NCBI GenBank assembly: GCA_029932545.1
Contig: JAOZPW010000001.1
Span: 2,006 to 66,005 of the forward strand
DNA: 64,000 nt
Reading direction: 5' to 3'
Origin: Thermoanaerobaculales bacterium
GTDB lineage: Bacteria > Acidobacteriota > Thermoanaerobaculia > Thermoanaerobaculales > Sulfomarinibacteraceae
Shown: in pieces, positions 1 through 15,155 of the stretch
Layout: every line of letters begins with the position of its first letter
Numbering within the stretch: the first letter of the stretch is position 1
Made by a program: the position numbers and the translations under genes
The notes under the pieces: model-generated
Seen by the model: the letters and a program-made list of their open reading frames with translations, nothing else
Told to the model about the DNA's origin: nothing
Databases searched by the model: none

Positions 1-180
1 GTTGCGGGGCATCACGCCCAACAGGAGGAGAAAAATGGTCAGCGCTCGGCCAAGGAGCACGGCCACTCTTCGATCACCATTGAATGTTGAACGGGGAGCC
101 TTTGATATCCGTTTCTTGTTGTGAGAATGCCGGCTAAATCCAGTGTCTTCAATCATGTCGGAGAGATGGTAGCATGAGAT

Positions 181-4062: not shown

Positions 4063-4472
4063 TGCCCCATCTGATACTCGAAGGACCAACAGATTTTTCA
4101 TCCGCCGTCACCGGGATCCACACCGAAGCCCGACGTTGGGGGCGAGCCGTACTCAAGACGGAAGGGTGGTGGTCGCGATCCGACGCCGGGGCCCTGCTTT
4201 TCGAAGGGGTCATCGTAGAGTTTTCTCGCGCCCTGCACCCGCTTGCCTTGGTGGCCCCGCATCACGGTGACACCAGCGTACGACTCTGGCCCTATATTGA
4301 TATCGAGAGAACCCACGCCGTCCAGCGCTGGTTGGCCCTGATTGCCGCAGATCTCCAGAATGGCGGCGCCGGCGTACTCAAGAAAACCAACATCCCGGAC
4401 GAGATCTTGCACGGACTCGAGTTCAAGAAAGGTCACGTCCTGTCAAGTGGTGTACGAAGGGCCTATGCGTAA
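4062..4472 (+). CDS. hypothetical protein; 3' end runs into the IS inverted repeat
   Basis: 136-aa ORF overlapping the yjbQ-like stop (ATGA). The last ~8 codons lie inside the left inverted repeat of the IS256-family remnant, so the C-terminus may be altered. Confidence 0.4.
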   Translation: MPHLILEGPTDFSSAVTGIHTEARRWGRAVLKTEGWWSRSDAGALLFEGVIVEFSRALHPLALVAPHHGDTSVRLWPYIDIERTHAVQRWLALIAADLQNGGAGVLKKTNIPDEILHGLEFKKGHVLSSGVRRAYA

Positions 4473-5491
4473 TCCATGACGATCATGCCGAGAGCGGTAG
4501 TGATTCTGGCAGGACCTCCCTTCGTGTTGGTGGTTGAAATGTTGGTGATCGATCTTTGGCGGCGGAGAGAGCCGTAAGAGTCATGTACCGACGTCCGATG
4601 GCCCACTCGTCGGATTGCTCGCACAAGAGAGCGCCTACAAGACGAATGATGGATGACCGATTTGGGAAGATGCCGACGACACCGGTACGGCATTTGATTT
4701 CCTTATTGAGGCGTTCCTGGGGGTTGTTGGACCAGATTTTCTTCCAGATTTCGATTGGGAATACGGCGAAGGCCAAGATGTCATGTGCGGCCTCTTCAAG
4801 AAGCGCTGCAGCTACCGGAAAGTTTCCCTCGAGTTGGTCCACAACCACCCAAAGTCGGTTCCAGACAGAATCTGCATCAGGTTGAAGGAAAATCGTACGA
4901 ACCAACGTGGCGACAAACGCCTGGGCATTCTTGGGCACTTTGGCTAACAGATTCCTCATGAAATGAGTCCGGCAGCGCTGCCAAGACGTACCTGGAAAAG
5001 TTGTTTGGCAATCTCGGAAACCTGGGATTTGGAGATTCCGTCGATCCCGAGCTGTTGGACCAGGCGTTCCACTTTTCGGGTCGAAACGCCCAAGACATAA
5101 CTCTCAGCGATGACGTTGAGAAGGGCCTTTTCAGACCTCCGCCGGGCTTCCAAGAGATTGTTGGGAAAGTAGGACCCCCTTCGCAGTTTTGGAATCTTCA
5201 GGTCAATCGTCCCGACCCGGGTATCCCAACGACGGCTCCGAAATCCATTCCGGTGATTCGTCCGATCAGGGCTACGTTCCCCATAGCCGGCACCACAAAT
5301 CGAGTCTACCTCTGCACCCATGAGTTCATCAGCCATCACCCGCACCATCTCCCGAAGCGTATCCGGGTCATCCTCCTCGAGCCTCTTGCGGATCTCATTG
5401 AAAAACGCCATATTGTTCTTGGTCATTGCTGTCTCCTTATTGAGGTTTGGTCATCTCATGGAGAATTACGCAATGGCCTTCATTATGCAAG
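4449..5491 (-). mobile_element. IS256-family insertion sequence, internally deleted derivative (~1.04 kb)
   Basis: Imperfect terminal inverted repeats: GTGTACGAAGGGCCTATGCGTAAT..CCATG at ~4450..4478, matched by the reverse complement of CATGGAGAATTACGCAATGGCCTTCATTATGCA at ~5457..5489. They enclose the split transposase ORFs. Boundaries are good to about 10 bp. Confidence 0.65.
4483..5426 (-). pseudogene. IS256/mutator-family transposase, internal deletion plus frameshift
   Basis: N-terminal piece 4956..5426 (...GVSTRKVERLVQQLGIDGISKSQVSEIAKQ). C-terminal piece 4483..4959 extends upstream in its own frame as TFPGTSWQRCRTHFMRNLLAKVP. The junction is at ~5000, and together the pieces give ~314 aa against ~400 aa for intact family members. 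The missing block is where the first two DDE aspartates normally lie. Confidence 0.85.
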
Positions 5492-5623
5492 TTTCGTCGG
5501 CCCGCTTGTAACGCCTGTGAGGTTGTGGAAAGCGGGGCCCCTACCCCCCTTCCCACAGCCCATCACAGGCACGACGACGATGAACAACTCTTCACTCTTA
5601 CACCACGTCGGTGGACTCTACTC

Positions 5624-5685
5624 TTGGGTTTTCGTTCGCACTGGACATGCCAACATCCAGTGACCGTTGCGTTGATTTGTTAGAA
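5624..5685 (-). other. truncated attC (R''/L'' half only) at the distal end of the array
   Basis: 62 bp matching the ORF-proximal half of the long attC family at 8549..8659, with ~5 mismatches by eye, including TTCTAAC (reverse complement of GTTAGAA 5679..5685). The partner arm (GTTGGCATG...CTCAGC...R') is absent. Confidence 0.7.
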
Positions 5686-5719
5686 GGCAGGCGGTATTTC
5701 ATTCGTTAAGACCTGATGC

Positions 5720-6268
5720 TCAGTTGCCGAGATCCAGATTTTCGGAAATGAAGTCCTCAAGAAACTGAAGGTCCCGTCGTTCAACAGTGATCTGATTTCC
5801 AAAATCGATCGCCCTGCGTTCCGTCTGAGCGAGGCGAGCTTCTATTTCCTTGGTTGACCTCCGGATCTTTTCGAGCATTTCAGACATTTCTTCTGATTCA
5901 GGTCCAGAAAGTTCACGGGCATTTTCTTCCATTCGCTCGATCATCTCTTCGGACCTCACGACAGATTCAGCGAGTGTCTCTCGGTATCCATTGGCCTGCA
6001 TCAAGAGTGTTTCCAGGCTCTCAACTTTGCGCGCCCGAAACTGGAGATAAGCGATTGCAAGTTCGAGTTTCTTGAGTTCGATCTCCCGGCCTTTTTGTTC
6101 AACGCCGTCACTCAAGACTCTCAACAACTCCCGATTCACCTCCACAAGGGACGCCAGTTCCCCGCATTTGACGGTGCCGGGTTCCGAAACCCCCTGGGCA
6201 GATCCTGGTCCCCCAATCAAAAGGTACACGGCCACAAGACCTACGACGAGGAAGTTTCGAAATCTCAT
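5720..6268 (-). CDS. cassette 6: secreted coiled-coil protein of unknown function
   Basis: 182-aa ORF with an AGGGGGG RBS, signal-peptide-like N-terminus (MRFRNFLVVGLVAVYLLIGGPGSAQG), then Glu/Arg/Leu-rich heptad-like sequence. Confidence 0.7.
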   Translation of the reverse strand: MRFRNFLVVGLVAVYLLIGGPGSAQGVSEPGTVKCGELASLVEVNRELLRVLSDGVEQKGREIELKKLELAIAYLQFRARKVESLETLLMQANGYRETLAESVVRSEEMIERMEENARELSGPESEEMSEMLEKIRRSTKEIEARLAQTERRAIDFGNQITVERRDLQFLEDFISENLDLGN

Positions 6269-6305
6269 TGACCCCCCTGCAAATGAATGCTCACTCTGAT
6301 CTGCC

Positions 6306-6372
6306 TTATAACTTGAAGCTCAATGGACCAGACCGCGCAGCGGTATGGGTCCATTGGAGCGATCCGTTAGGC
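6306..6372 (-). other. attC site (67 bp) of cassette 5
   Basis: Plus strand reads TTATAAC-TTGAAG-CTCAATGGACC...GGTCCATTGGAG-CGATCC-GTTAGGC. The L arms pair, with one extra base on the ORF-proximal arm. Confidence 0.8.
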
Positions 6373-6451
6373 GACGTAATTTATTCATGATTAATAGGTT
6401 ACGAGGGATTGTATGATTGTTGTCCCTGGCATCAGATTTCCGTAGAGGCGG

Positions 6452-7609
6452 CTACCAAATCCCAGCGGCATGTTGAGTTCGAAGGATCTCGACCATTTCC
6501 TCCTTGAGATCGCCAGGGGCACTCTCTATTGCTTCATTGAGAGGTTGGTTCTTTGTGCCGTTTAGATCCACAAGTCGCGTTTGGACGTGTTCCTTAACTC
6601 GAAAGTGCTGCCTTATGTTGCTGGAAAGAGACCATTTTGCTGAACCTCCCGTAAGGAAGAGGTTGAGGTCCTTTCTCTCGTCACAGAACGCGAGGTTACT
6701 GATCAATAGGTCAAGATATGCAATGTCGCCGCTTGCGAAGTAGGCACCCCAAAACATGTCGTTTTGGGACGGGGATACCGGTAGGGCTGTCTTGATGGCC
6801 GAAGTGTCGGCTGAGAGTTTCAATGCATTTGTGAGAACACCTCGAGGGCCATCCGGTTGTTTGGAAATGGTCTCCTTCCACGCGCCTATTCTTGTTGGAT
6901 TTGAAGAAAACACCTCTGTAAGGAAGCCAACGGCTGGTGGGAAGGTTTCGCTATTTTCCAGAATATCGCTTTCACTGAGAGCGTAAATCGCTTCGTCAAT
7001 GAACTCGGGCCTCGGATCAAGGTAATAGGAGTCCATCAATTCGCCCAAATCGAAGGACTCGAGCCTGTGCTTTGCTTCGAAGGATCTCTTGAGTTCCAGA
7101 CATACATCTGCCACGCGATCACAGACGTTCGCGGTGAAAGTGTACTCACCAAGAAGATCCTGAGGTTCGATGATTAATCCTAGATAGGCGCGACCAAGTT
7201 GCATTCGTTGCTCGGGAGGCGGCGCGACTCCTGAACACAAATCGTTGTCTGGCTCTGACGCGTACTCACTACCATCTGGGCCGATCACCGCCAAGTCAGC
7301 GATGATATCGCAGTGCCCTTTATTATTGGCTTGCCCCCCAGAGAAGAACACAAATGCAACGATCATGTCACCGCGTTTCACATCACTCGTCGTCGAAAGG
7401 CTCGGGGTATATCCGGGAGATGCCGGTTGGTCCCATTGCTCCAGGAACGATTCAGGTTCAGACGATAGGAGCATCATGGAACCGAATGAGCCTACGGACT
7501 TTCTCCACTCTGAGTCGGGGACTACACCGTCCTCGCTGTACCATTGCGCTTGTACCTGGCTAGGAATCAGAATAGCGATGGCGATGAGTGGCAATAGGAA
7601 AATCTTCAC
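6452..7609 (-). CDS. cassette 5: secreted protein of unknown function
   Basis: 385-aa ORF with a GTG start behind AAGGAGG and signal peptide MKIFLLPLIAIAILIPSQVQA. No family recognised. Confidence 0.7.
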   Translation of the reverse strand: MKIFLLPLIAIAILIPSQVQAQWYSEDGVVPDSEWRKSVGSFGSMMLLSSEPESFLEQWDQPASPGYTPSLSTTSDVKRGDMIVAFVFFSGGQANNKGHCDIIADLAVIGPDGSEYASEPDNDLCSGVAPPPEQRMQLGRAYLGLIIEPQDLLGEYTFTANVCDRVADVCLELKRSFEAKHRLESFDLGELMDSYYLDPRPEFIDEAIYALSESDILENSETFPPAVGFLTEVFSSNPTRIGAWKETISKQPDGPRGVLTNALKLSADTSAIKTALPVSPSQNDMFWGAYFASGDIAYLDLLISNLAFCDERKDLNLFLTGGSAKWSLSSNIRQHFRVKEHVQTRLVDLNGTKNQPLNEAIESAPGDLKEEMVEILRTQHAAGIW

Positions 7610-7654
7610 GATACCTCCTTCGAAATGGGTAGCGGTTCGGTCATGCGAAACGAG

Positions 7655-7729
7655 GCCTAACGGTCCGAGTTCAGCGGACCGGGGCCGCGGCCGCCGCGGA
7701 CCGGGGTCCGCTGGAACGAGATGTTAGGC
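7655..7729 (-). other. attC site (75 bp) of cassette 4
   Basis: GCCTAAC (7655..7661) and GTTAGGC (7723..7729) are perfect complements. Inner arms TTCAGCGGACC / GGTCCGCTGGAA pair with one extra G. The cassette stop codon TAA lies inside R''. Confidence 0.85.
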
Positions 7730-8125
7730 ATCCGCAATCCGCTCAGAGATCTTCACCATCGGCTCAGGATTGACGTAGAGCTGCCAAACCGCAACCAGTT
7801 CATCTTCGACGACGACACGCCACGCCGCGGGAACCACCCAGTGATTCTCTGGCTTGAGAGCCCCGGCCTGATCGAATGTGCCCTCCGCGACACCCAGCAG
7901 AACCACGACGTTGCCTCTGGCGAATGTGTCCTTCACCTGGATTCGGAAGTCCGGCACCATCGAGAAGTAACTCCTCCACCCGTCACGCATCTGCTCGCGT
8001 CCGCAATGCTCACTGCCGTCTGAGTCCACAAACACGTGGCCCTCTGTCATCAATTCCGCAAGACGATCTGGATTCCCGGAGTTGATGGCGTCAACGAAGG
8101 AGCGTGCAGTTTCCGTTGAAGTCAT
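7724..8125 (-). CDS. cassette 4: SnoaL/NTF2-like (DUF4440-type) small protein
   Basis: 133-aa ORF behind an AGGAG RBS. The N-terminal ARSFVDAINSGNPDRLAELMTEGHVFVDSDG pattern is typical of the nuclear transport factor 2 / SnoaL fold. Confidence 0.7.
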   Translation of the reverse strand: MTSTETARSFVDAINSGNPDRLAELMTEGHVFVDSDGSEHCGREQMRDGWRSYFSMVPDFRIQVKDTFARGNVVVLLGVAEGTFDQAGALKPENHWVVPAAWRVVVEDELVAVWQLYVNPEPMVKISERIADA

Positions 8126-8145
8126 TTGCCGATGCTCCTGAAGCG

Positions 8146-8235
8146 GCCTAACGACCGAACTCAGTTGACCGGCAGCACGGCGCAGAGCGAAGCGGCGCGA
8201 CGGGTTGCTGGGTCAACTGCAGTGATTTGTTATGT
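8146..8235 (-). other. attC site (90 bp) of cassette 3
   Basis: GCCTAAC (8146..8152) ... CTCAGTTGACC ... GGTCAACTGCAG-TGATTT-GTTATGT (8229..8235). There is an extra base in the ORF-proximal L arm, and the stop codon lies inside R''. Confidence 0.85.
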
Positions 8236-8526
8236 GTTTGCATTGAACTTAGGCCAGCGGTTGTAGCCTTTTTGTGGGTTATTTGACTCATTTTTGCGAA
8301 TATACTCAACCTCTTTAGCTGACAGCTCTTCTTCTGTTGCTGTCTCTGACTCCCAAAGAATTTGTTTTCTTATCGTATAATCTTTGCGGACATCATCTGG
8401 AAGGCTTTTGAAATCTTCATTGACTATGGCCATGTCCGGGCTGCCATAATATCTATAACTACCTACACTATCTTTACCAATGTATATCTTGCCTGTTGGG
8501 CACGTAATCATATAGATTTGTTTCAT
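8230..8526 (-). CDS. cassette 3: stand-alone GIY-YIG nuclease-domain protein
   Basis: 98-aa ORF: IYMITCPTGKIYIGKDS...YYGS (GIY...YIG block), then SAKEVEYIRKNESNNPQKGYN (E...N block). The cassette is visibly AT-rich relative to its flanks. Confidence 0.65.
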   Translation of the reverse strand: MKQIYMITCPTGKIYIGKDSVGSYRYYGSPDMAIVNEDFKSLPDDVRKDYTIRKQILWESETATEEELSAKEVEYIRKNESNNPQKGYNRWPKFNANT

Positions 8527-8548
8527 TGGTGTATCTATTTCTTTTTAC

Positions 8549-8659
8549 ACATAACGCTTGAACTCAGCGGCGCTGGTTGTTGGCATGGCCGGTGCCTTTG
8601 GGTTTTCGTTCGCACTGGACATGCCAACAATCAGTGACCGTTGCCGTGATTTGTTAGAC
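8549..8659 (-). other. attC site (111 bp, long family) of cassette 2
   Basis: ACATAAC (8549..8555) ... CTCAGCGGCGCTGGTTGTTGGCATG ... CATGCCAACAATCAGTGACCGTTGCCGTG-ATTT-GTTAGAC (8653..8659). Roughly 85-90% identical by eye to the site at 9358..9469. Confidence 0.85.
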
Positions 8660-8728
8660 CGCGAAGTGTTACCTATGTCCATGGACTGTTTTGTTGCCTC
8701 TGGCCCAGCCGGCCCCCACATCTGCAAA

Positions 8729-9076
8729 TTACCGAGTCTGATCAGGTTTCATCCCCAGTTGAACTCTGACAACTCGTTCAACGGATATCATGTCTGGCTG
8801 CGAAAGTTCACCGAGCCGCGTACCCAAACGCCCTTTGGTTACGGTTGCAATCTGATCGGCCATTGCCTTCCGCTGTTCGCCGTTGAGGTCCACGTAGGTT
8901 TCGCTGGGATACAACTTGGACACGTTACTTGTGAGCGGAACAACCTGGACTCGATTCAAATGCTGGTTGGCTGCATCATTACTGATGATGACGGCAGGCC
9001 TTCGCTTCCGAACTTCACCACCAAGTGATGGATCAAAATTGACCCACCACACCTCACCGCGTTTCATCAGCGACAT
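8729..9076 (-). CDS. mazF: cassette 2: MazF/PemK-family type II toxin (endoribonuclease)
   Basis: 115-aa ORF with the MazF/PemK N-terminal signature ([29 protein letters not shown]...VVPLTS). It overlaps the upstream antitoxin ORF by 23 bp. Confidence 0.85.
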
Positions 9077-9284
9077 CCATCATCGTGGTTTCTGCCCACT
9101 CCATTGCCTCTGTTTCGCGCTCTTCTTCCTGAGCCATTTCACGGTAGGCGGCAGACAACTCTTCCTCCACGACGTGGGGACGAACAAGTGATTCGATAAA
9201 ACGGCTAATTCGTCTTCGACCGACTATTCGGTGAAGACCGTGATAGACATGCTCGTCAACAGTGATGGTTAGCTTTTTTTGCAT
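9054..9284 (-). CDS. cassette 2: ribbon-helix-helix type antitoxin
   Basis: 76-aa ORF with N-terminal beta-strand/helix pattern [18 protein letters not shown] and an acidic C-terminal tail. It overlaps the mazF-like gene and has an AGGAGA RBS. Confidence 0.7.
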
Positions 9285-9296
9285 GGCCGTTCTCCT

Positions 9297-9333
9297 ATAC
9301 GTGTAATATACGTGTAATAGAGAATATTGGCAA
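9297..9333 (-). promoter_or_regulatory. cassette-internal sigma70-type promoter with tandem 11-bp operator-like repeats
   Basis: Minus strand reads TTGCCA (9333..9328), 17 nt, TATATT (9310..9305), then AGGAGA and ATG 9284. The tandem direct repeat ATACGTGTAAT x2 (9297..9307, 9308..9318) overlaps the -10 and the transcription start. Confidence 0.6.
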
Positions 9334-9357
9334 GGGGTTCACACCATCGATTCGACG

Positions 9358-9469
9358 GTCTAACGTTTGAGCTCAGCGGCGCTGGTTGTTGGCATGGCCG
9401 GTGCTTTTGGGTTTTCGTTTCGCACTAGACATGCCAACAGCCAGTGACCGCTGCAGTGATTTGTTAGGT
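9358..9469 (-). other. attC site (112 bp, long family) of cassette 1
   Basis: GTCTAAC (9358..9364) ... GCTCAGCGGCGCTGGTTGTTGGCATG ... CATGCCAACAGCCAGTGACCGCTGCAGTG-ATTT-GTTAGGT (9463..9469). The stop codon of ORF 9464..9901 lies inside R''. Confidence 0.85.
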
Positions 9470-9901
9470 TTCCTCCGGGGTTTCTGTTGACGTCCAGAGC
9501 TGTCCTGGACGAACTTCACAACAGTTGTAACACCCGCTTTTACCGTCACCCTTGTTGAACCAAACATGTTTCCATCCAACGGCATCACAAGAATCTGGGC
9601 GCAATTCTGACCAAAAGGCTTCTATGAATTCCGCTGGTTCCTGTGGTATCACTCTCATGGTGCTCGCGACCTCAACAACGTCGGTGCCGAGAGGATCTTC
9701 CAGTTCCTCTATCCAATACTCATCAAGGTATTCAATGCCAACGTCATCGGAACCGTACCGTTCAAAATCAGCGAGAATGACCTCCTCCGCTTTTGAACGA
9801 CTCTCTGCTTGAACAACCACCACGCGCTCCTCGTACCTGGTGATCTTGTTGGGATTCTCATTCCGAAACTGGAATAGACCCAACGCACTGAACCACTTCA
9901 T
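9464..9901 (-). CDS. cassette 1, distal ORF: hypothetical protein with Cys-rich C-terminus
   Basis: ORF 9464..9913 (TTG) trimmed to ATG 9901 (MKWFSALGLFQF...). The C-terminus carries SCDAVGW...SGCYNCCEV. Possibly DUF4288-like, recalled from memory only. Confidence 0.6.
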   Translation of the reverse strand: MKWFSALGLFQFRNENPNKITRYEERVVVVQAESRSKAEEVILADFERYGSDDVGIEYLDEYWIEELEDPLGTDVVEVASTMRVIPQEPAEFIEAFWSELRPDSCDAVGWKHVWFNKGDGKSGCYNCCEVRPGQLWTSTETPEET

Positions 9902-9995
9902 TAAACCGTCCAATCCTGAGCCTGAGGCCTAAGCTCTGCGGGCTTCCCCCGCATGGGTGAGGCCCACTGCAATGAAGTGTCACGCAGTGTCGCCA

Positions 9996-10394
9996 TTATG
10001 CCCCTTGGGACTTGAGTTCCGCCATCACTTCAGCGAGTCCTTCGTGGGCCGACTCATCTGCACCAAGATCAATCGCGCGCCGGAAAAACGGCTCCGCCTT
10101 TCCGGGGTCGGCGCAGATGGCGTCGTAGTAAAACCCAAGGCTCTCAAACGCCTCAGGGTCTTCGGGGTCGATCTCCGCTGCCCTGGTATAGCTGGCTTCT
10201 GCATCCTCGAGGCTGTAACGCCCCTCATCGTTGGATACCTGAATCAGATCACCTCTGAGGCACCAAAGCTCAATGGAATCTGGATGTACTTCCAAGGCGC
10301 GCTCGACAAGCTCAAGATCTTCGGCGCAGACGCAGTCATTCTTGGAGACGGTCTGGCCGATCTGGGCGGCAATCTCTTCTGGTTTCTCTTTCAT
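9996..10394 (-). CDS. cassette 1, proximal ORF: small TPR-like repeat protein
   Basis: ORF 9996..10403 (GTG) trimmed to ATG 10394, which has a GAAGG RBS at good spacing. Helical-repeat motifs are AEASYTRAAEIDPEDPEAFESLGFYY and AEPFFRRAIDLG. Confidence 0.65.
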   Translation of the reverse strand: MKEKPEEIAAQIGQTVSKNDCVCAEDLELVERALEVHPDSIELWCLRGDLIQVSNDEGRYSLEDAEASYTRAAEIDPEDPEAFESLGFYYDAICADPGKAEPFFRRAIDLGADESAHEGLAEVMAELKSQGA

Positions 10395-10403
10395 ACTGTT
10401 CAC

Positions 10404-10485
10404 ACCTTCGAATAGGAACCTAACTATGTAATTAGGTTGCAGAAACGCAACCTATTTCTCGGCGGATTGTTATGTTGCAGGGTGG
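10404..10485 (-). other. attI recombination region; predicted crossover box GTTAGGT
   Basis: ACCTAAC at 10418..10424 (minus strand GTTAGGT) lies inside the palindrome AACCTAA-CTATGTAA-TTAGGTT (10417..10438). A second inverted repeat AGGTTGC-AGAAAC-GCAACCT follows at 10434..10452. This is the space between the first cassette and intI. Confidence 0.6.
10423..10450 (-). promoter_or_regulatory. candidate cassette promoter (Pc) inside attI
   Basis: Minus strand reads TTGCGT (10450..10445), 16 nt, CATAGT (10428..10423), firing into cassette 1. Sequence match only. Confidence 0.3.
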
Positions 10486-10514
10486 TTGCTTTGTCCATGT
10501 CCCAAGATTACAAT
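10486..10514 (+). promoter_or_regulatory. candidate intI promoter
   Basis: TTGCTT (10486..10491), 17 nt, TACAAT (10509..10514), about 40 bp upstream of ATG 10554. Confidence 0.5.
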
Positions 10515-10553
10515 AGGTTGAGAGTCCCGTCCACGCTGCGGATAGGAAATTCG

Positions 10554-11573
10554 ATGAAAACAAATATTGCATCCGCAGCAACCAGGAAACCCAATCTTCT
10601 CGACCGAGTTCATGAAGTGGCGAGGGTTCGCCACCTTGCGTATCGGACAGAGCAGAGTTACGTCAACTGGATCAAGAGATTCGTTCTCTTTCACGATATG
10701 CGCCACCCTGCCCAAATGGGAAAAATCGAGGTGGAGGGTTTTCTCACCCACCTGGCTGTCCGCGATCGTGTGTCGGCCTCCACTCAGAATCAGGCACTTT
10801 CTGCCATCTTGTTCTTGTACAAACACGTTCTCAACCAGAAGCTGCCCTGGCTCGATGATGTCATCCGAGCCAAAAGACCCAAGCGTATTCCCATTGTCCT
10901 CTCGCGATCCGAAATAACCCGCCTGTTCGTCCACCTCGACGGAACTCCCCGCTTGGTTGCCGGCCTCTTGTACGGTTCTGGCCTTCGCTTGATGGAGGCT
11001 CTGCGTTTGAGAGTTCATGATCTCGATTTTGACTACGGTCAGATTCTCATTCGAGACGGGAAGGGCGGCAAGGATCGCCACACCGTTCTTCCTTCTGGGT
11101 TGATTCCCGACATCAAGCAACATTTGGTATTGGTCGAATCGATCCACCACAGCGACCTGGAACGAGGAGAAGGCCAGGTGAAGCTCCCCTCTGCGCTGGC
11201 AAGAAAGTACCCCACCCGCGCCACCGCGTGGGGTTGGCAATGGGTTTTCCCTTCTCCGACATTTTCATCCGACCCTCGTGACGGCATGGTTCGGCGCCAC
11301 CACCTCTACCACCAACGAATCCAACGCGCGGTTTCACACGCTGTCCGAGCAGCCATGCTCAACAAGACGGCAACCTGCCATACGCTCCGGCACTCGTTTG
11401 CGACCCATTTGCTCGAGGACGGTTACGACATCAGAACGGTGCAGGAACTCCTGGGCCACAAAGATGTCAAGACGACGATGATCTATACGCATGTGATGAA
11501 TAATGGCCGCTGCGGTGTGATCAGCCCGTTGGACAGGGGCCGAATCAAGGGGGGCCGAAGGGGTGATCCATAG
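10554..11573 (+). CDS. intI: integron integrase IntI (tyrosine recombinase)
   Basis: Recombinase boxes GLRLMEALRLRVHDLD, HTLRHSFATHLLEDG and LLGHKDVKTTMIYTHV, plus the IntI-specific insertion LPSALARKYPTRATAWGWQWVFPS. ORF 10437..11573 was trimmed to ATG 10554. Confidence 0.93.
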   Translation: MKTNIASAATRKPNLLDRVHEVARVRHLAYRTEQSYVNWIKRFVLFHDMRHPAQMGKIEVEGFLTHLAVRDRVSASTQNQALSAILFLYKHVLNQKLPWLDDVIRAKRPKRIPIVLSRSEITRLFVHLDGTPRLVAGLLYGSGLRLMEALRLRVHDLDFDYGQILIRDGKGGKDRHTVLPSGLIPDIKQHLVLVESIHHSDLERGEGQVKLPSALARKYPTRATAWGWQWVFPSPTFSSDPRDGMVRRHHLYHQRIQRAVSHAVRAAMLNKTATCHTLRHSFATHLLEDGYDIRTVQELLGHKDVKTTMIYTHVMNNGRCGVISPLDRGRIKGGRRGDP

Positions 11574-12326
11574 CTGCCGCAGGTTGATGTGGATCCTAAA
11601 ACCCTTGAAATAGGGATGTTGGCGGATCTCGCAACATCACATCCTCTGTTCGTTTGTGTCTCAATGAAGGCCATGAAGCCTCGGATCGAGTCTACCAGGG
11701 ATCAAAAGAGCCGAAGATCCAGAACCGGCCGCTGGCGCCGCCGCTGCACCCGTCACCGACGCGGTCGCTGTTCCTCATTCTGCCTACTGTCGCCGACTCT
11801 GCCTCTGTCGCTGCGTACTGAACCCGCCGCTGAATCTGCCGCTGTCCCAGACAGCTATCACGGCTTTCCAGCCCCGGCCTTCGGGGGCGCTTCAAGGTTA
11901 CCGTAAGCTCAACGACTGTCGATCGCCCCCGCTCGGTGCATTTTCCTCAAGGGGCTCCGTAACAGAAATCGGGGGGGAACCGCCCCTTGAGGAAAATGAC
12001 CTCGGCAGCCTACACCGTAGGCCGAGACTCGATTGCCGACGGTGCCGCCGTGGGTTGCCCGGTGTCGCCCTTCTTCGCATCGACGGCTCGGTTGGGGGTC
12101 CTGCCCGGTGAAGAGAGGGCGCACCCGGCACTCCCCGTCCAAGAGGGGCACTCCCGGTTTCCAGCGTCACAATAGAGCCTCTTGCAAGACTCCGAGAGTC
12201 ACGATGCGGGGCAGGAGCCCCGCGCTCCAACTTGCATTCCCGGCAAGCCTCTTTGTGGCTATTCCTCTGCGCCTCTGCGTTGATTTCCTGGCCCGAAGGG
12301 CCCCATGCAATTCGTTCGACGAATTG

Positions 12327-15155
12327 CTACAGTATCTCCCGCAAATACACCCCTGTATACGACTTCTCACACTCGGCGACCTGCTCAGGGGTTCCGGCGG
12401 CAACCAGGGTGCCGCCGCCGTCACCGCCTTCGGGGCCCAGGTCGATAATCCAGTCGGCGACCTTGACGACGTCCAAATTGTGTTCGATGACGACGATGGT
12501 ATTGCCTCGATCGACCAGAGCCCGGAGAACACCGAGCAATCTCCGGACGTCGTCAAAATGCAGTCCGGTGGTCGGCTCATCCAAGAGATAGAGGGTTGTC
12601 CCGGTTGCCCTCTTGGCCAACTCTCTCGAGAGCTTGACGCGTTGGGCCTCACCGCCCGAAAGGGTTGTCGCCGCCTGGCCCAGGTGGATATATCCCAATC
12701 CGACGGCGGTCAGGGTGTCGAGGACCCGTTTGACCTTGGGCACCGGATCAAAGACCTCACGGGCCTGGTCGATGGTCAGGTCGAGTACTTCGGCGATGTT
12801 GAGTCCCTTGTATCGGACCTCCAGGGTTTCCCGGTTGTAGCGGGAACCGTGGCAGACATCACAGGTGACGAAGACGTCGGCCAAAAAGTGCATCTCGATA
12901 CGAACCTGCCCCGCTCCCTGACAGGCCTCGCACCGTCCTCCCTTGACGTTGAAGCTGAATCTCCCGGGTTTGTAGCCTCGTGCCCGGGCCTCGGTGGTTC
13001 CGGCAAACAAGGACCGGATCGGGTCAAAGACCTTGGTGTAGGTTGCAGGATTTGACCGGGGCGTACGCCCGATGGGGCTCTGGTCGATAGCGATGACCTT
13101 GTCCAGGTTCTCGGCCCCCTCGATGGTGCCGTGCCTTCCGGGTCGGGCCATTGTCCCGTAGACTTCGCGCGCCACAGCTTTGTGGAGGATCTCATTGACG
13201 AGTGTTGATTTCCCCGACCCGGACACGCCGGTGACGCAGATCAGACACCCCAGGGGAAAGGCGACGTCAACGTCTTTAAGGTTGTGCTCGCGCGCGCCGT
13301 GAATGACCAGGTCTCGGCCGGTCCCGGGGTTTCGATGGGCAGGGACGGGAATCCTCTCGACACCGGACAAGTACCGACCGGTCAGACTCTCGGGGGCCTC
13401 CAGAATTACCTCCAGCGGGCCCTGGGCCACGACTTCGCCACCGTGACGACCAGCGCCAGGACCCATGTCGATCACCCAGTCCGCCTGGCGAATGGACTCT
13501 TCGTCATGTTCGACCACGACCACGGTGTTGCCGAGATCCCGCATGCCGAACAGGGTGTTCAAAAGCCTCTGGTTGTCTCGCTGATGAAGGCCGATCGAAG
13601 GCTCGTCCAATACGTACAAGACTCCCATCAGTTTTGATCCCACCTGGGTCGCTAATCGAATTCGCTGACTTTCGCCCCCAGAGAGCGTTCCTGCCATCCG
13701 GTCAAGACTCAGGTATTCCAGGCCGACCGACTCCAGGAACATCAGGCGGTCTCGGATCTCCCTCAAGACCTTGGTCGCGATCTTCTCGTCCCGGCCGGAC
13801 AGGCTGATGTCGGCAAACCAGGCCCGAGTCCGATGGATCGGCATGGCCGACACCTCGGAGATACCGGCGCCGTCGACGAGAACCGCCAGAGACTCGGGCC
13901 GAAGGCGTGCGCCGTTACACGACGAACAGGTGGTAAATGACATATAGCGCTCGAGCTCTCGCCGAATTTCTTCCGATGCCGTCTCGCCATACCGTCTTTC
14001 GATCCTCGGGACCAGTCCTTCCAATCGGTCCCGGAAGCGGTAGGCGCCCTTCTTGCCCTCCCATACGAAATCGAACTCGTCATCGGACCCGAAAAGAATC
14101 AAGCGGCGAATAGCTTCGGGAAGATCCCGCCACGGCGTTCTCAAGTCAAACCCGAGGGATGTTCCCAGTTGACCCAAGAGCCGACCAAACCACGAGGCGC
14201 CGCCATTGGTGACTGTCGCGAGGCACCCGGCGCCGATCGATCTGGTTGGATCCAGCACCAGCTTTTCGGGGTCGATCTCTCTCAGAAAACCCAGGCCCGA
14301 GCACTTCGGACACGCTCCCTGTGGCGAGTTGAAGGAGAAAAGGCGCGGCGAAACCTCCGACAGAGAAAAGCCACACTCCAAACAGGCCAGGAGCGACGAG
14401 AGTTGCATCTCCGGATGACCTTCGGCGGCAATGCGAACCAACCCCTGACCAACCTTGAGTGCGGTCTCCAGAGATGACGCCAACCGGCTCTTGACACCCT
14501 CCCTGACAGAGAGGCGATCAATGACCACCTCGATCGTATGTTTCCGCTTTTTGTCCAGCTCGGGTCTTTCGGCGATCTCGACAACTTCGCCGTCAACCCG
14601 CGCCCGAACGAATCCCTCCCGCCCCATCTGCTCGAACAGTTTTCGGTGTTCACCCTTGCGGTCCCTGATGAGGGGCGCCAGGACCAAAAACCGGCTGCCG
14701 TCGGGCAGGCCCAGGATCCGATCAACCATCTGGTCAACGGTTTGAGATTGGATCGGCGTGTGATGCACCGGGCAATGCGCCACGCCGATCGAGGCCCACA
14801 GCAGCCTCAGATAATCGTGAATCTCGGTAACGGTTCCGACGGTCGATCGGGGATTTTTTGACGTGGTCTTCTGTTCGATCGAAATGGCGGGGGAAAGACC
14901 TTCGATCAAATCAACGTCGGGCTTCTCCATCTGATCCAGAAACTGCCGGGCGTAGGCCGACAGACTTTCGACATAGCGTCGCTGTCCTTCGGCAAAGAGC
15001 GTATCGAATGCCAGGGAACTCTTGCCGGACCCCGAAACTCCGGTGATGACGACCAGTCGATTCCTGGGAATCGATACGTCGATATTCGCGAGGTTGTGTT
15101 CCCTCGCCCCTCGAATGACGATCTCGTCACGAATGCCGGTCGGCTCATGGTCCAT
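12327..15155 (-). CDS. uvrA: excinuclease ABC subunit A
   Basis: 942-aa ORF with two ABC ATPase modules ([32 protein letters not shown] signatures) and zinc-finger Cys pairs. Confidence 0.97.

Follow-up and report, generated by a model that had tools for sequence, protein, structure and literature searches.

Why should the box that closes one recombination site of an integron match the site that follows it, and not the site in which it lies? This question is raised by a cassette array in a 64,000-nt stretch of DNA from a Thermoanaerobaculales bacterium (assembly GCA_029932545.1, contig JAOZPW010000001.1, positions 2,006 to 66,005), hereafter called the window. The region holds a complete integron in the chromosome of an uncultured Acidobacteriota bacterium, ordinary in kind and truncated by an insertion sequence (IS). 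The integrase gene intI lies on the plus strand, and divergent from it the attachment site attI and six co-oriented cassettes with their attC sites lie on the minus strand (Table 1). Our analysis leaves little room for doubt that the pattern of the boxes is the footprint of integron integrase (IntI) cutting every cassette at G|TT and inserting it.

Complementarity of boxes along the array

All twelve 7-mers that the initial annotation had picked out were confirmed at their coordinates on the minus strand. The claim built on them, that a closing box (R') complements the R'' box of the next site and not that of its own, was borne out as well. Along the chain the six junctions have 0, 0, 0, 0, 0 and 1 mismatches, one in total, against 2, 3, 2, 0 and 3, ten in total, when the five whole sites are paired within themselves. 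Re-pairing of the six R'' boxes reached one mismatch or less in 2 of 720 permutations, and both of these differ only by a swap of the GCCTAAC boxes, which are identical. When only the five whole cassettes are considered, 2 of 120 permutations are as good.

The agreement is not limited to the 7-mer. In cassettes 1, 2, 3 and 6 the complementarity goes further and reaches 9-12 nt, and in the mismatched case, cassette 6, 11 of 12 bases are complementary (GTTATAAGGCAG against GTTAGAAGGCAG). Boxes that depart from the consensus covary in the window and in related arrays, as seen for GTTATGT/ACATAAC, GTTATAC/GTATAAC, GTTCGCG/CTCGAAC and GTTAGCT/AGCTAAC.

It had further been claimed that the rule fixes the cassette boundaries to the base. 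The five intervals agree with the definition used in ACID, but the sequence confines each boundary to no more than the shared GTT(A). Past GTTA, related arrays are no longer homologous. That the cut lies exactly at G|TT is taken from published experiments and not from the window. In the same way, the suggestion that the pattern argues for acquisition and not for duplication stands in part. Tandem duplication and chance are excluded, but the rule is also kept under IntI-mediated shuffling and under inheritance of a whole array, and therefore one-by-one acquisition in this genome is not demonstrated. Better evidence for a turnover of cassettes is given by the differing first cassettes behind near-identical attI sites, by cassette GC contents between 0.43 and 0.60 and by one cassette that occurs behind two attC types.

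Circularisation of cassettes and folding of attC sites

The five whole cassettes were circularised in silico and both strands were folded as DNA, with energies calculated including 3-nt flanks. As had been predicted, circularisation makes every R''/R' stem perfect, with 7-8 bp in the exact R''..R' site and up to 9 bp with the flanks. The predicted circular junction of cassette 2, for example, reads ...GAGTTCAAGCG|TTAGACCGTCGAATCG. From the integrated to the circular form, the folding energy of the bottom strand changes from -28.4 to -32.4 kcal/mol in attC1, from -27.3 to -35.2 in attC2, from -21.2 to -26.0 in attC3 and from -19.9 to -22.8 in attC5, corresponding to gains of 4.0, 7.9, 4.8 and 2.9 kcal/mol, respectively. 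For attC4, the boxes of which are identical, the energy stays essentially the same.

The folds are canonical: R and L stems with an unpaired spacer between them, and a variable loop. Single-base bulges of the L stem are confined, on the bottom strand, to the '' arm. In five of five attC sites the bottom strand is more stable than the top strand. Compared with shuffled sequences, the exact sites in their circular form have z-scores of -3.9 to -6.3, and none of 200 shuffles folds as well. The five whole sites range from 67 to 112 nt, with two boxes off the consensus (GTTATGT and GTTATAA). An integron calls for at least two attC sites of the form R''(RYYYAAC)-L''...L'-R'(GTTRRRY) with a folded bottom strand, and the array contains such sites. 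A scan of the 64 kb for attC sites by structure only delivered many hairpins, none of which outside the array has both boxes plus the fold. Likewise, the left and right half-site motifs of the attC family have no further occurrence in the window.

Related arrays

Collections of genome and metagenome contigs were scanned with the attC motif (related loci are given L numbers). The attC family of 111 nt to which the sites of cassettes 1, 2 and 6 belong was detected in two metagenome-assembled genomes (MAGs) of Holophagae and in 21 JGI sediment metagenome contigs, several of which carry a homologue of the attI of the window with 71-97% identity. Six versions of attI can be aligned as far as ...ACATAGTTA, after which no similarity is left and each leads into a first cassette of its own. 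Five of these six platforms, including that of the window, retain the R'' box of the first attC, and in all five the 7-mer at the junction is its exact complement (GTTAGGT/ACCTAAC, GTTAGAT/ATCTAAC, GTTAGAC/GTCTAAC, GTTAGGC/GCCTAAC and GTTATAC/GTATAAC).

Among 14 further cassettes of related arrays, start and R'' box match perfectly in ten and with one mismatch in four. When 20 cassettes are pooled, 15 are perfect and five have a single mismatch, a fit that was reached by none of 200,000 random re-pairings; the box of the own site in the integrated state is perfect in only 2 of 16.

The initial annotation also proposed to look for the same cassettes with different neighbours. A cassette starting with TTAGAGGGCGAATTATGC is shared by L004 and L036, where the attC sites in front of it are of two different types. 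The two copies are 98% identical over an alignment of 430 nt, of which about 412 lie after G|TT. The mazEF cassette recurs in L018, where it is followed by a different cassette and the homology ends after GTTA. In this second case homologous recombination is possible; the last 10 nt of the L018 attC2 resemble a different member of the family.

Several other candidates were rejected. L013 appeared to offer a different upstream neighbour of cassette 3, but positions 1..27 of the contig (ENA ERZ27227323 k141_780112) are an Illumina adaptor (TTTCCCTACACGACGCTCTTCCGATCT). L009, considered as a diverged strain with compensatory changes in its boxes, differs by N-gaps of the scaffold and by a few single nucleotide polymorphisms (SNPs) outside the boxes. 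The first cassette of L025 was considered as a mazEF homologue with compensatory boxes, but its homology is confined to the attC and about 30 nt preceding it. A cassette exchange in L011 and L014 was discarded because the break falls within cassette 5, after its first 87 nt, rather than at an attC, and because the window does not contain the new sequence. In these two independent assemblies the break is equivalent to window position 7574, after the 5′ untranslated region of cassette 5 plus 12 codons, and the sequence past it resembles, by eye, the C-terminal part of a multi-pass membrane protein.

At this point we want to mention a separate observation on the 111-nt attC family. Its members are truncated or replaced within the central stem-loop at differing positions in L020, L023 (915..), L029/L030, L037 (1769..), L040 and L021/L031, and the same foreign end sequence (GATGGAGAAGRGTAGTGTCSCCTATAGATTC) is present in L029/L030 and L040. 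These repeated breaks in the central loop suggest that elements insert into the attC loop.

Mechanism and alternative explanations

Integron recombination would lead to such a pattern in the following way. IntI would recombine the folded bottom strand of the attC of a circular cassette with attI or with another attC, and a crossover that separates G from TT in the R' box would linearise the cassette. Its own TTRRRY would land at the 5' end, joined there to the upstream site's G, and the rest of the attC, from R'' through L' to the G, would land at the 3' end, where the next cassette's TTRRRY follows it. As a cut at G|TT would put TTRRRY at the cassette's 5' end, each integrated R' box would be a hybrid, the variable bases of which belong to the downstream cassette and complement the R'' of that cassette. 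Linearisation at G|TT of the own attC and insertion by IntI had already been put forward by the initial annotation, and all tests fit this mechanism: an intact integrase adjoins the array, the attC sites are canonical, circularisation restores the stems and related arrays obey the rule.

Some points weigh against this interpretation. One junction, GTTATAA with TTCTAAC, is mismatched. The site attC4 is uninformative, because its neighbours carry the same GTTAGGC box and own-site and chain pairing therefore coincide. In L018, the swap of the neighbouring cassette may be a homologous exchange between near-identical attC sites and not the work of IntI, because two SNPs lie just upstream of the junction. 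A scan of positions 10300..10800 with the sigma-70 consensus, which covers promoters of the sigma-70 type only, revealed no Pc-like match. Exact cleavage at G|TT, recombination of the bottom strand and insertion by this particular IntI are what we infer from established integron biology.

Chance deserves attention as an explanation, since the boxes are bound to the GTTRRRY/RYYYAAC consensus and neighbours will often look complementary. Only four positions vary, and the pair GTTAGGC/GCCTAAC is common, with two occurrences in the window and several in related loci. Nevertheless, the permutation tests refute it, with 2 of 720 re-pairings in the window and 0 of 200,000 for the 20 pooled cassettes reaching the observed fit, and it is at odds with the covariation of non-consensus boxes and with complementarity that goes past the 7-mer. 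We regard a chance origin as practically out of the question. Hardly more credible, as a substitute for insertion by IntI, is the view that the complementarity is no historical scar and is kept by present-day selection, either for competence in re-excision or for a role of the single strand in the integrated state. Stems that are perfect or nearly so in 20 cassettes, some of 9-12 bp, speak for it, as a pure scar is expected to decay; the cases with one mismatch in 5 of 20 cassettes speak against it. Selection complements the explanation by IntI and makes the same predictions for the sequence, and the data do not separate history from selection.

A rival of another kind is that homologous recombination or duplication between similar attC sites, and not IntI, has grown or reshuffled the array, the pattern itself being inherited from elsewhere. 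The attC sites of cassettes 1 and 2 and the remnant of attC6 are indeed about 90% identical and share a nearly identical core of about 60 nt, the end of the L018 attC2 differs, and relatives show rearrangements that are not site-specific (the break in cassette 5 in L011/L014 and the cut of attC6 by an IS). However, exchange inside an attC can only preserve the rule and cannot create it, because the variable bases of R' stay with the downstream cassette. In addition, the other three of the five whole attC sites show no relationship in either sequence or length, no cassette duplicates another, and attI, a site not homologous to attC, is joined by different first cassettes exactly at GTTA. We therefore consider this explanation very improbable and attribute the pattern to cassette insertion by IntI.

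Comparison with known integrons

The rule itself is textbook knowledge, and the array in the window is a clean further instance of it. Gene cassettes have been defined with its help since the 1990s, and existing annotation schemes make use of it. Hall, Brookes and Stokes reportedly mapped the crossover point in 1991, and the structure of the sites is said to have been set out by Stokes et al. in 1997. In ACID, a cassette begins at the first T of one R' and closes with the G of the following R', and its own attC is the one of the circular form (PMC2674596). The dependence of the RRRY bases of an integrated R' on the downstream cassette has been described as well (Blanco et al. 2023, preprint, 10.1101/2023.11.21.568050; PMC2674596). 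The pattern in the window is the same statement as this published boundary rule and does not differ from it in principle. The local value of the analysis lies in five fixed cassette boundaries and in one well-delimited integron added from an uncultured Acidobacteriota lineage, the integrase of which is already labelled in GenBank. It also illustrates that a naive reader can recover the anatomy of an integron from raw sequence.

The chromosomal integron of Vibrio cholerae shares with the present one a divergent intI, a chromosomal site, a toxin-antitoxin cassette and bottom-strand attC folds with bulges. However, it comprises about 180 cassettes and belongs to another phylum, whereas the array in the window has six, is truncated by an IS and has three of its six attC sites in one family. 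With six cassettes and three attC sites of about 90% identity in a truncated array, it is, as it now stands, not a sedentary integron of the large 'super-integron' type, a term that implies tens of cassettes and highly similar attC sites. Mobile class 1 integrons have in common with it the intI gene, an attI composed of a simple site and upstream repeats, cassettes with attC sites and the crossover consensus. In contrast to class 1, the element has no transposon or plasmid context and no resistance genes, and its neighbours are uvrA and smpB. Its integrase scores 363.7 bits against the equivalog model PRK15417/NF011946, below the cutoff of 435, and so does not fall into the IntI1 type.

Chromosomal integrons of Acidobacteria with taxon-specific attC sites are on record (Ghaly et al. 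2021, PMC8352920). The recurrence of the 111-nt attC family of the window fits such lineage- or habitat-specific families.

Integrase, attI and genomic context

Table 1. Features of the integron in the window, in array order from intI to the truncated end.
Feature	Coordinates	Strand	Basis or remark
intI, integron integrase, 339 aa	10554..11573	+	ATG at 10554; TIGR02249, 2A3V, cluster name
attI	10418..10553	-	crossover G|TT at 10424|10423; sequence read directly
R' (closing) boxes	GTTAGGT 10424..10418; GTTAGAC 9364..9358; GTTATGT 8555..8549; GTTAGGC 8152..8146; GTTAGGC 7661..7655; GTTATAA 6312..6306	-	
R'' boxes	ACCTAAC 9469..9463; GTCTAAC 8659..8653; ACATAAC 8235..8229; GCCTAAC 7729..7723; GCCTAAC 6372..6366; TTCTAAC 5685..5679	-	
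Cassette 1, 1060 nt, two ORFs (open reading frames): TPR protein and DUF4288-like protein	9364..10423	-	boxes, Pfam matches
attC1, 112 nt as integrated	9358..9469	-	start GTTAGGT complements cassette 1's own R'' ACCTAAC
Cassette 2, 809 nt, mazE/mazF toxin-antitoxin pair	8555..9363	-	PemK_toxin E 1.3e-26, MazE NCBIfam match
attC2, 111 nt	8549..8659	-	boxes of cassette 2: GTTAGACCG / CGGTCTAAC
Cassette 3, 403 nt, 98-aa ORF without assigned function	8152..8554	-	boxes, GC 0.43
attC3, 90 nt	8146..8235	-	non-consensus GTTATGT matched by equally unusual ACATAAC
Cassette 4, 491 nt, SnoaL-like protein	7661..8151	-	SnoaL_2 E 1.2e-15
attC4, 75 nt	7655..7729	-	boxes GTTAGGC / GCCTAAC
Cassette 5, 1349 nt, 385-aa ORF without assigned function	6312..7660	-	boxes
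attC5, 67 nt	6306..6372	-	boxes
Cassette 6, 182-aa ORF without assigned function	5621..6311	-	start GTTATAAGGCAG against own end GTTAGAAGGCAG
attC6 remnant, left half only, attC1/attC2 family	5685..5621	-	family alignment stops after ...CCCAAGAG
Decayed IS256-family insertion sequence	4434..5620	-	low-coordinate end approximate; cuts attC6, ends array

The mechanical ORF of intI starts with a TTG at 10437 (10437..11573, plus strand), and the likely start codon is the ATG at 10554. The ORF matches the NCBIfam model TIGR02249 'integron integrase' with 467 bits (cutoff 265) over profile positions 1-314 of 315. With the structure of the Vibrio cholerae integrase VchIntIA (2A3V) the protein aligns almost end to end (residues 18-328, E 8e-92), and the alignment takes in the integron-specific insertion at about residues 190-235 of the query as well as the R, K, HxxR, H and Y boxes. 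By these alignments it belongs to the IntI subfamily of tyrosine recombinases and carries the extra domain specific to integrons. The exact protein belongs to a 90% cluster, the representative of which is RLE36023.1, 'MAG: integron integrase [Acidobacteria bacterium]'.

On the far side of intI from the array lies uvrA (12327..15155), with smpB and housekeeping genes beyond. The array was found with the same housekeeping neighbours in four independent assemblies, and the element is therefore chromosomal and not located on a transposon or plasmid. Samples that contain the array include ENA ERZ27227322/3, SRR21545388 and JGI 3300033146.

The attI lies beside intI and ends in a GTTRRRY crossover at the first cassette, as is characteristic of such a site. 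It consists of the simple site AACCTAA-TTACATA-GTTAGGT and a motif TGCAAC(A/C)TAA, which is repeated upstream. Its crossover box GTTAGGT (10424..10418) is 130 nt from the start of intI. Within 10424..10440, the left arm AACCTAA complements TTAGGTT, and the start of cassette 1 thus fits its own R'' as well as the arm of attI. This second match looks coincidental, because five other platforms carry other junction bases. A scan for terminators around attI detected nothing.

Just upstream of the start codon of intI, at about 10525..10544, there is an inverted repeat, GTCC-N7-GGAC, which is kept in most of the related attI platforms, those without intI included. By its position and conservation it could be a candidate operator.

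Cassettes and the end of the array

Cassette 1 carries two ORFs. A hidden attC between them was considered and rejected: the sole candidate (9766..9670, -9.3 kcal/mol) has the boxes TTTGAAC/GTTGAGG, which fit neither the consensus nor the rule. The chain rule shows that this cassette is a single unit of two genes. For the 385-aa ORF of cassette 5, no match was obtained in Pfam or NCBIfam. The GC content is 0.43 in cassette 3 and 0.50-0.60 in the other cassettes, compared with 0.56 for the window, and the low value of cassette 3 is consistent with a foreign origin. On alignment, attC1 and attC2 are 91.6% identical.

The array ends at the remnant of an IS256-family element, which cuts attC6 in its central loop at 5621/5620. 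The right half of attC6, searched for by its motif, is absent from the whole window, so that the array is taken to end at this point. Despite its cut attC, cassette 6 is shown by the chain rule to belong to the array. Two ORFs of the remnant match Transposase_mut at profile positions 13-144 and 258-377, and the middle part is missing due to an internal deletion. An imperfect terminal inverted repeat was read by eye.

attI platforms without intI and a 250-nt repeat

Among the related loci there are attI platforms (L022/L037, L025/L033, L029/L030, L036 and L039) that are 71-94% identical to the attI of the window, being homologues of 10420..10574, and retain only the first 20 nt or so of intI. 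Beyond a common point near GTTGGCTGCAATATTTGTTTTC they continue with other sequence. Replacement of intI is seen in at least four distinct platforms with 3-7 kb of upstream sequence, and two shorter contigs show the same. No match to IntI was obtained by tblastn, even at E 10, on the metagenome contigs that carry the attI homologue. The upstream genes differ between platforms, with DUF3999 in one case, O-antigen ligase/PMT_2 in another and MetH/Mem_trans in a third. Each of these platforms has a different first cassette, and the junction rule is obeyed at attI where this can be checked. A decayed 3' end of intI was considered for the sequence that replaces the gene and was rejected, as local alignment scores were at or only marginally above those of shuffled controls and never lay in intI.

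Between the stop codons of intI and uvrA, at about 11900..12170 on the plus strand, we detected a repeat of about 250 nt. It is also present in L003, L004, L021, L028, L029, L030, L033, L036 (four copies), L037 and L039, where it adjoins attI platforms and lies inside cassette arrays, in both orientations and often in several copies. In Rfam searches, tRNAs were the only families in the window to pass the gathering threshold, and around the repeat no credible match came up with E values up to 1. A scan of viral contigs for the repeat gave no match.

A doubtful but conceivable idea is that the attI sites without intI keep capturing cassettes by means of an IntI acting in trans, possibly from an integron like that of the window, and that the repeat would be an undescribed RNA or mobile element tied to the integrons of this lineage.

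From 12 copies of the repeat, a fold with 59 pairs was derived. In this fold 93% of cells are paired, compared with 41-49% in slid controls, and compensatory changes occur at 15 pairs. There are 71 G-T pairs and 16 A-C pairs, which favours the plus strand of the window as the folding strand.

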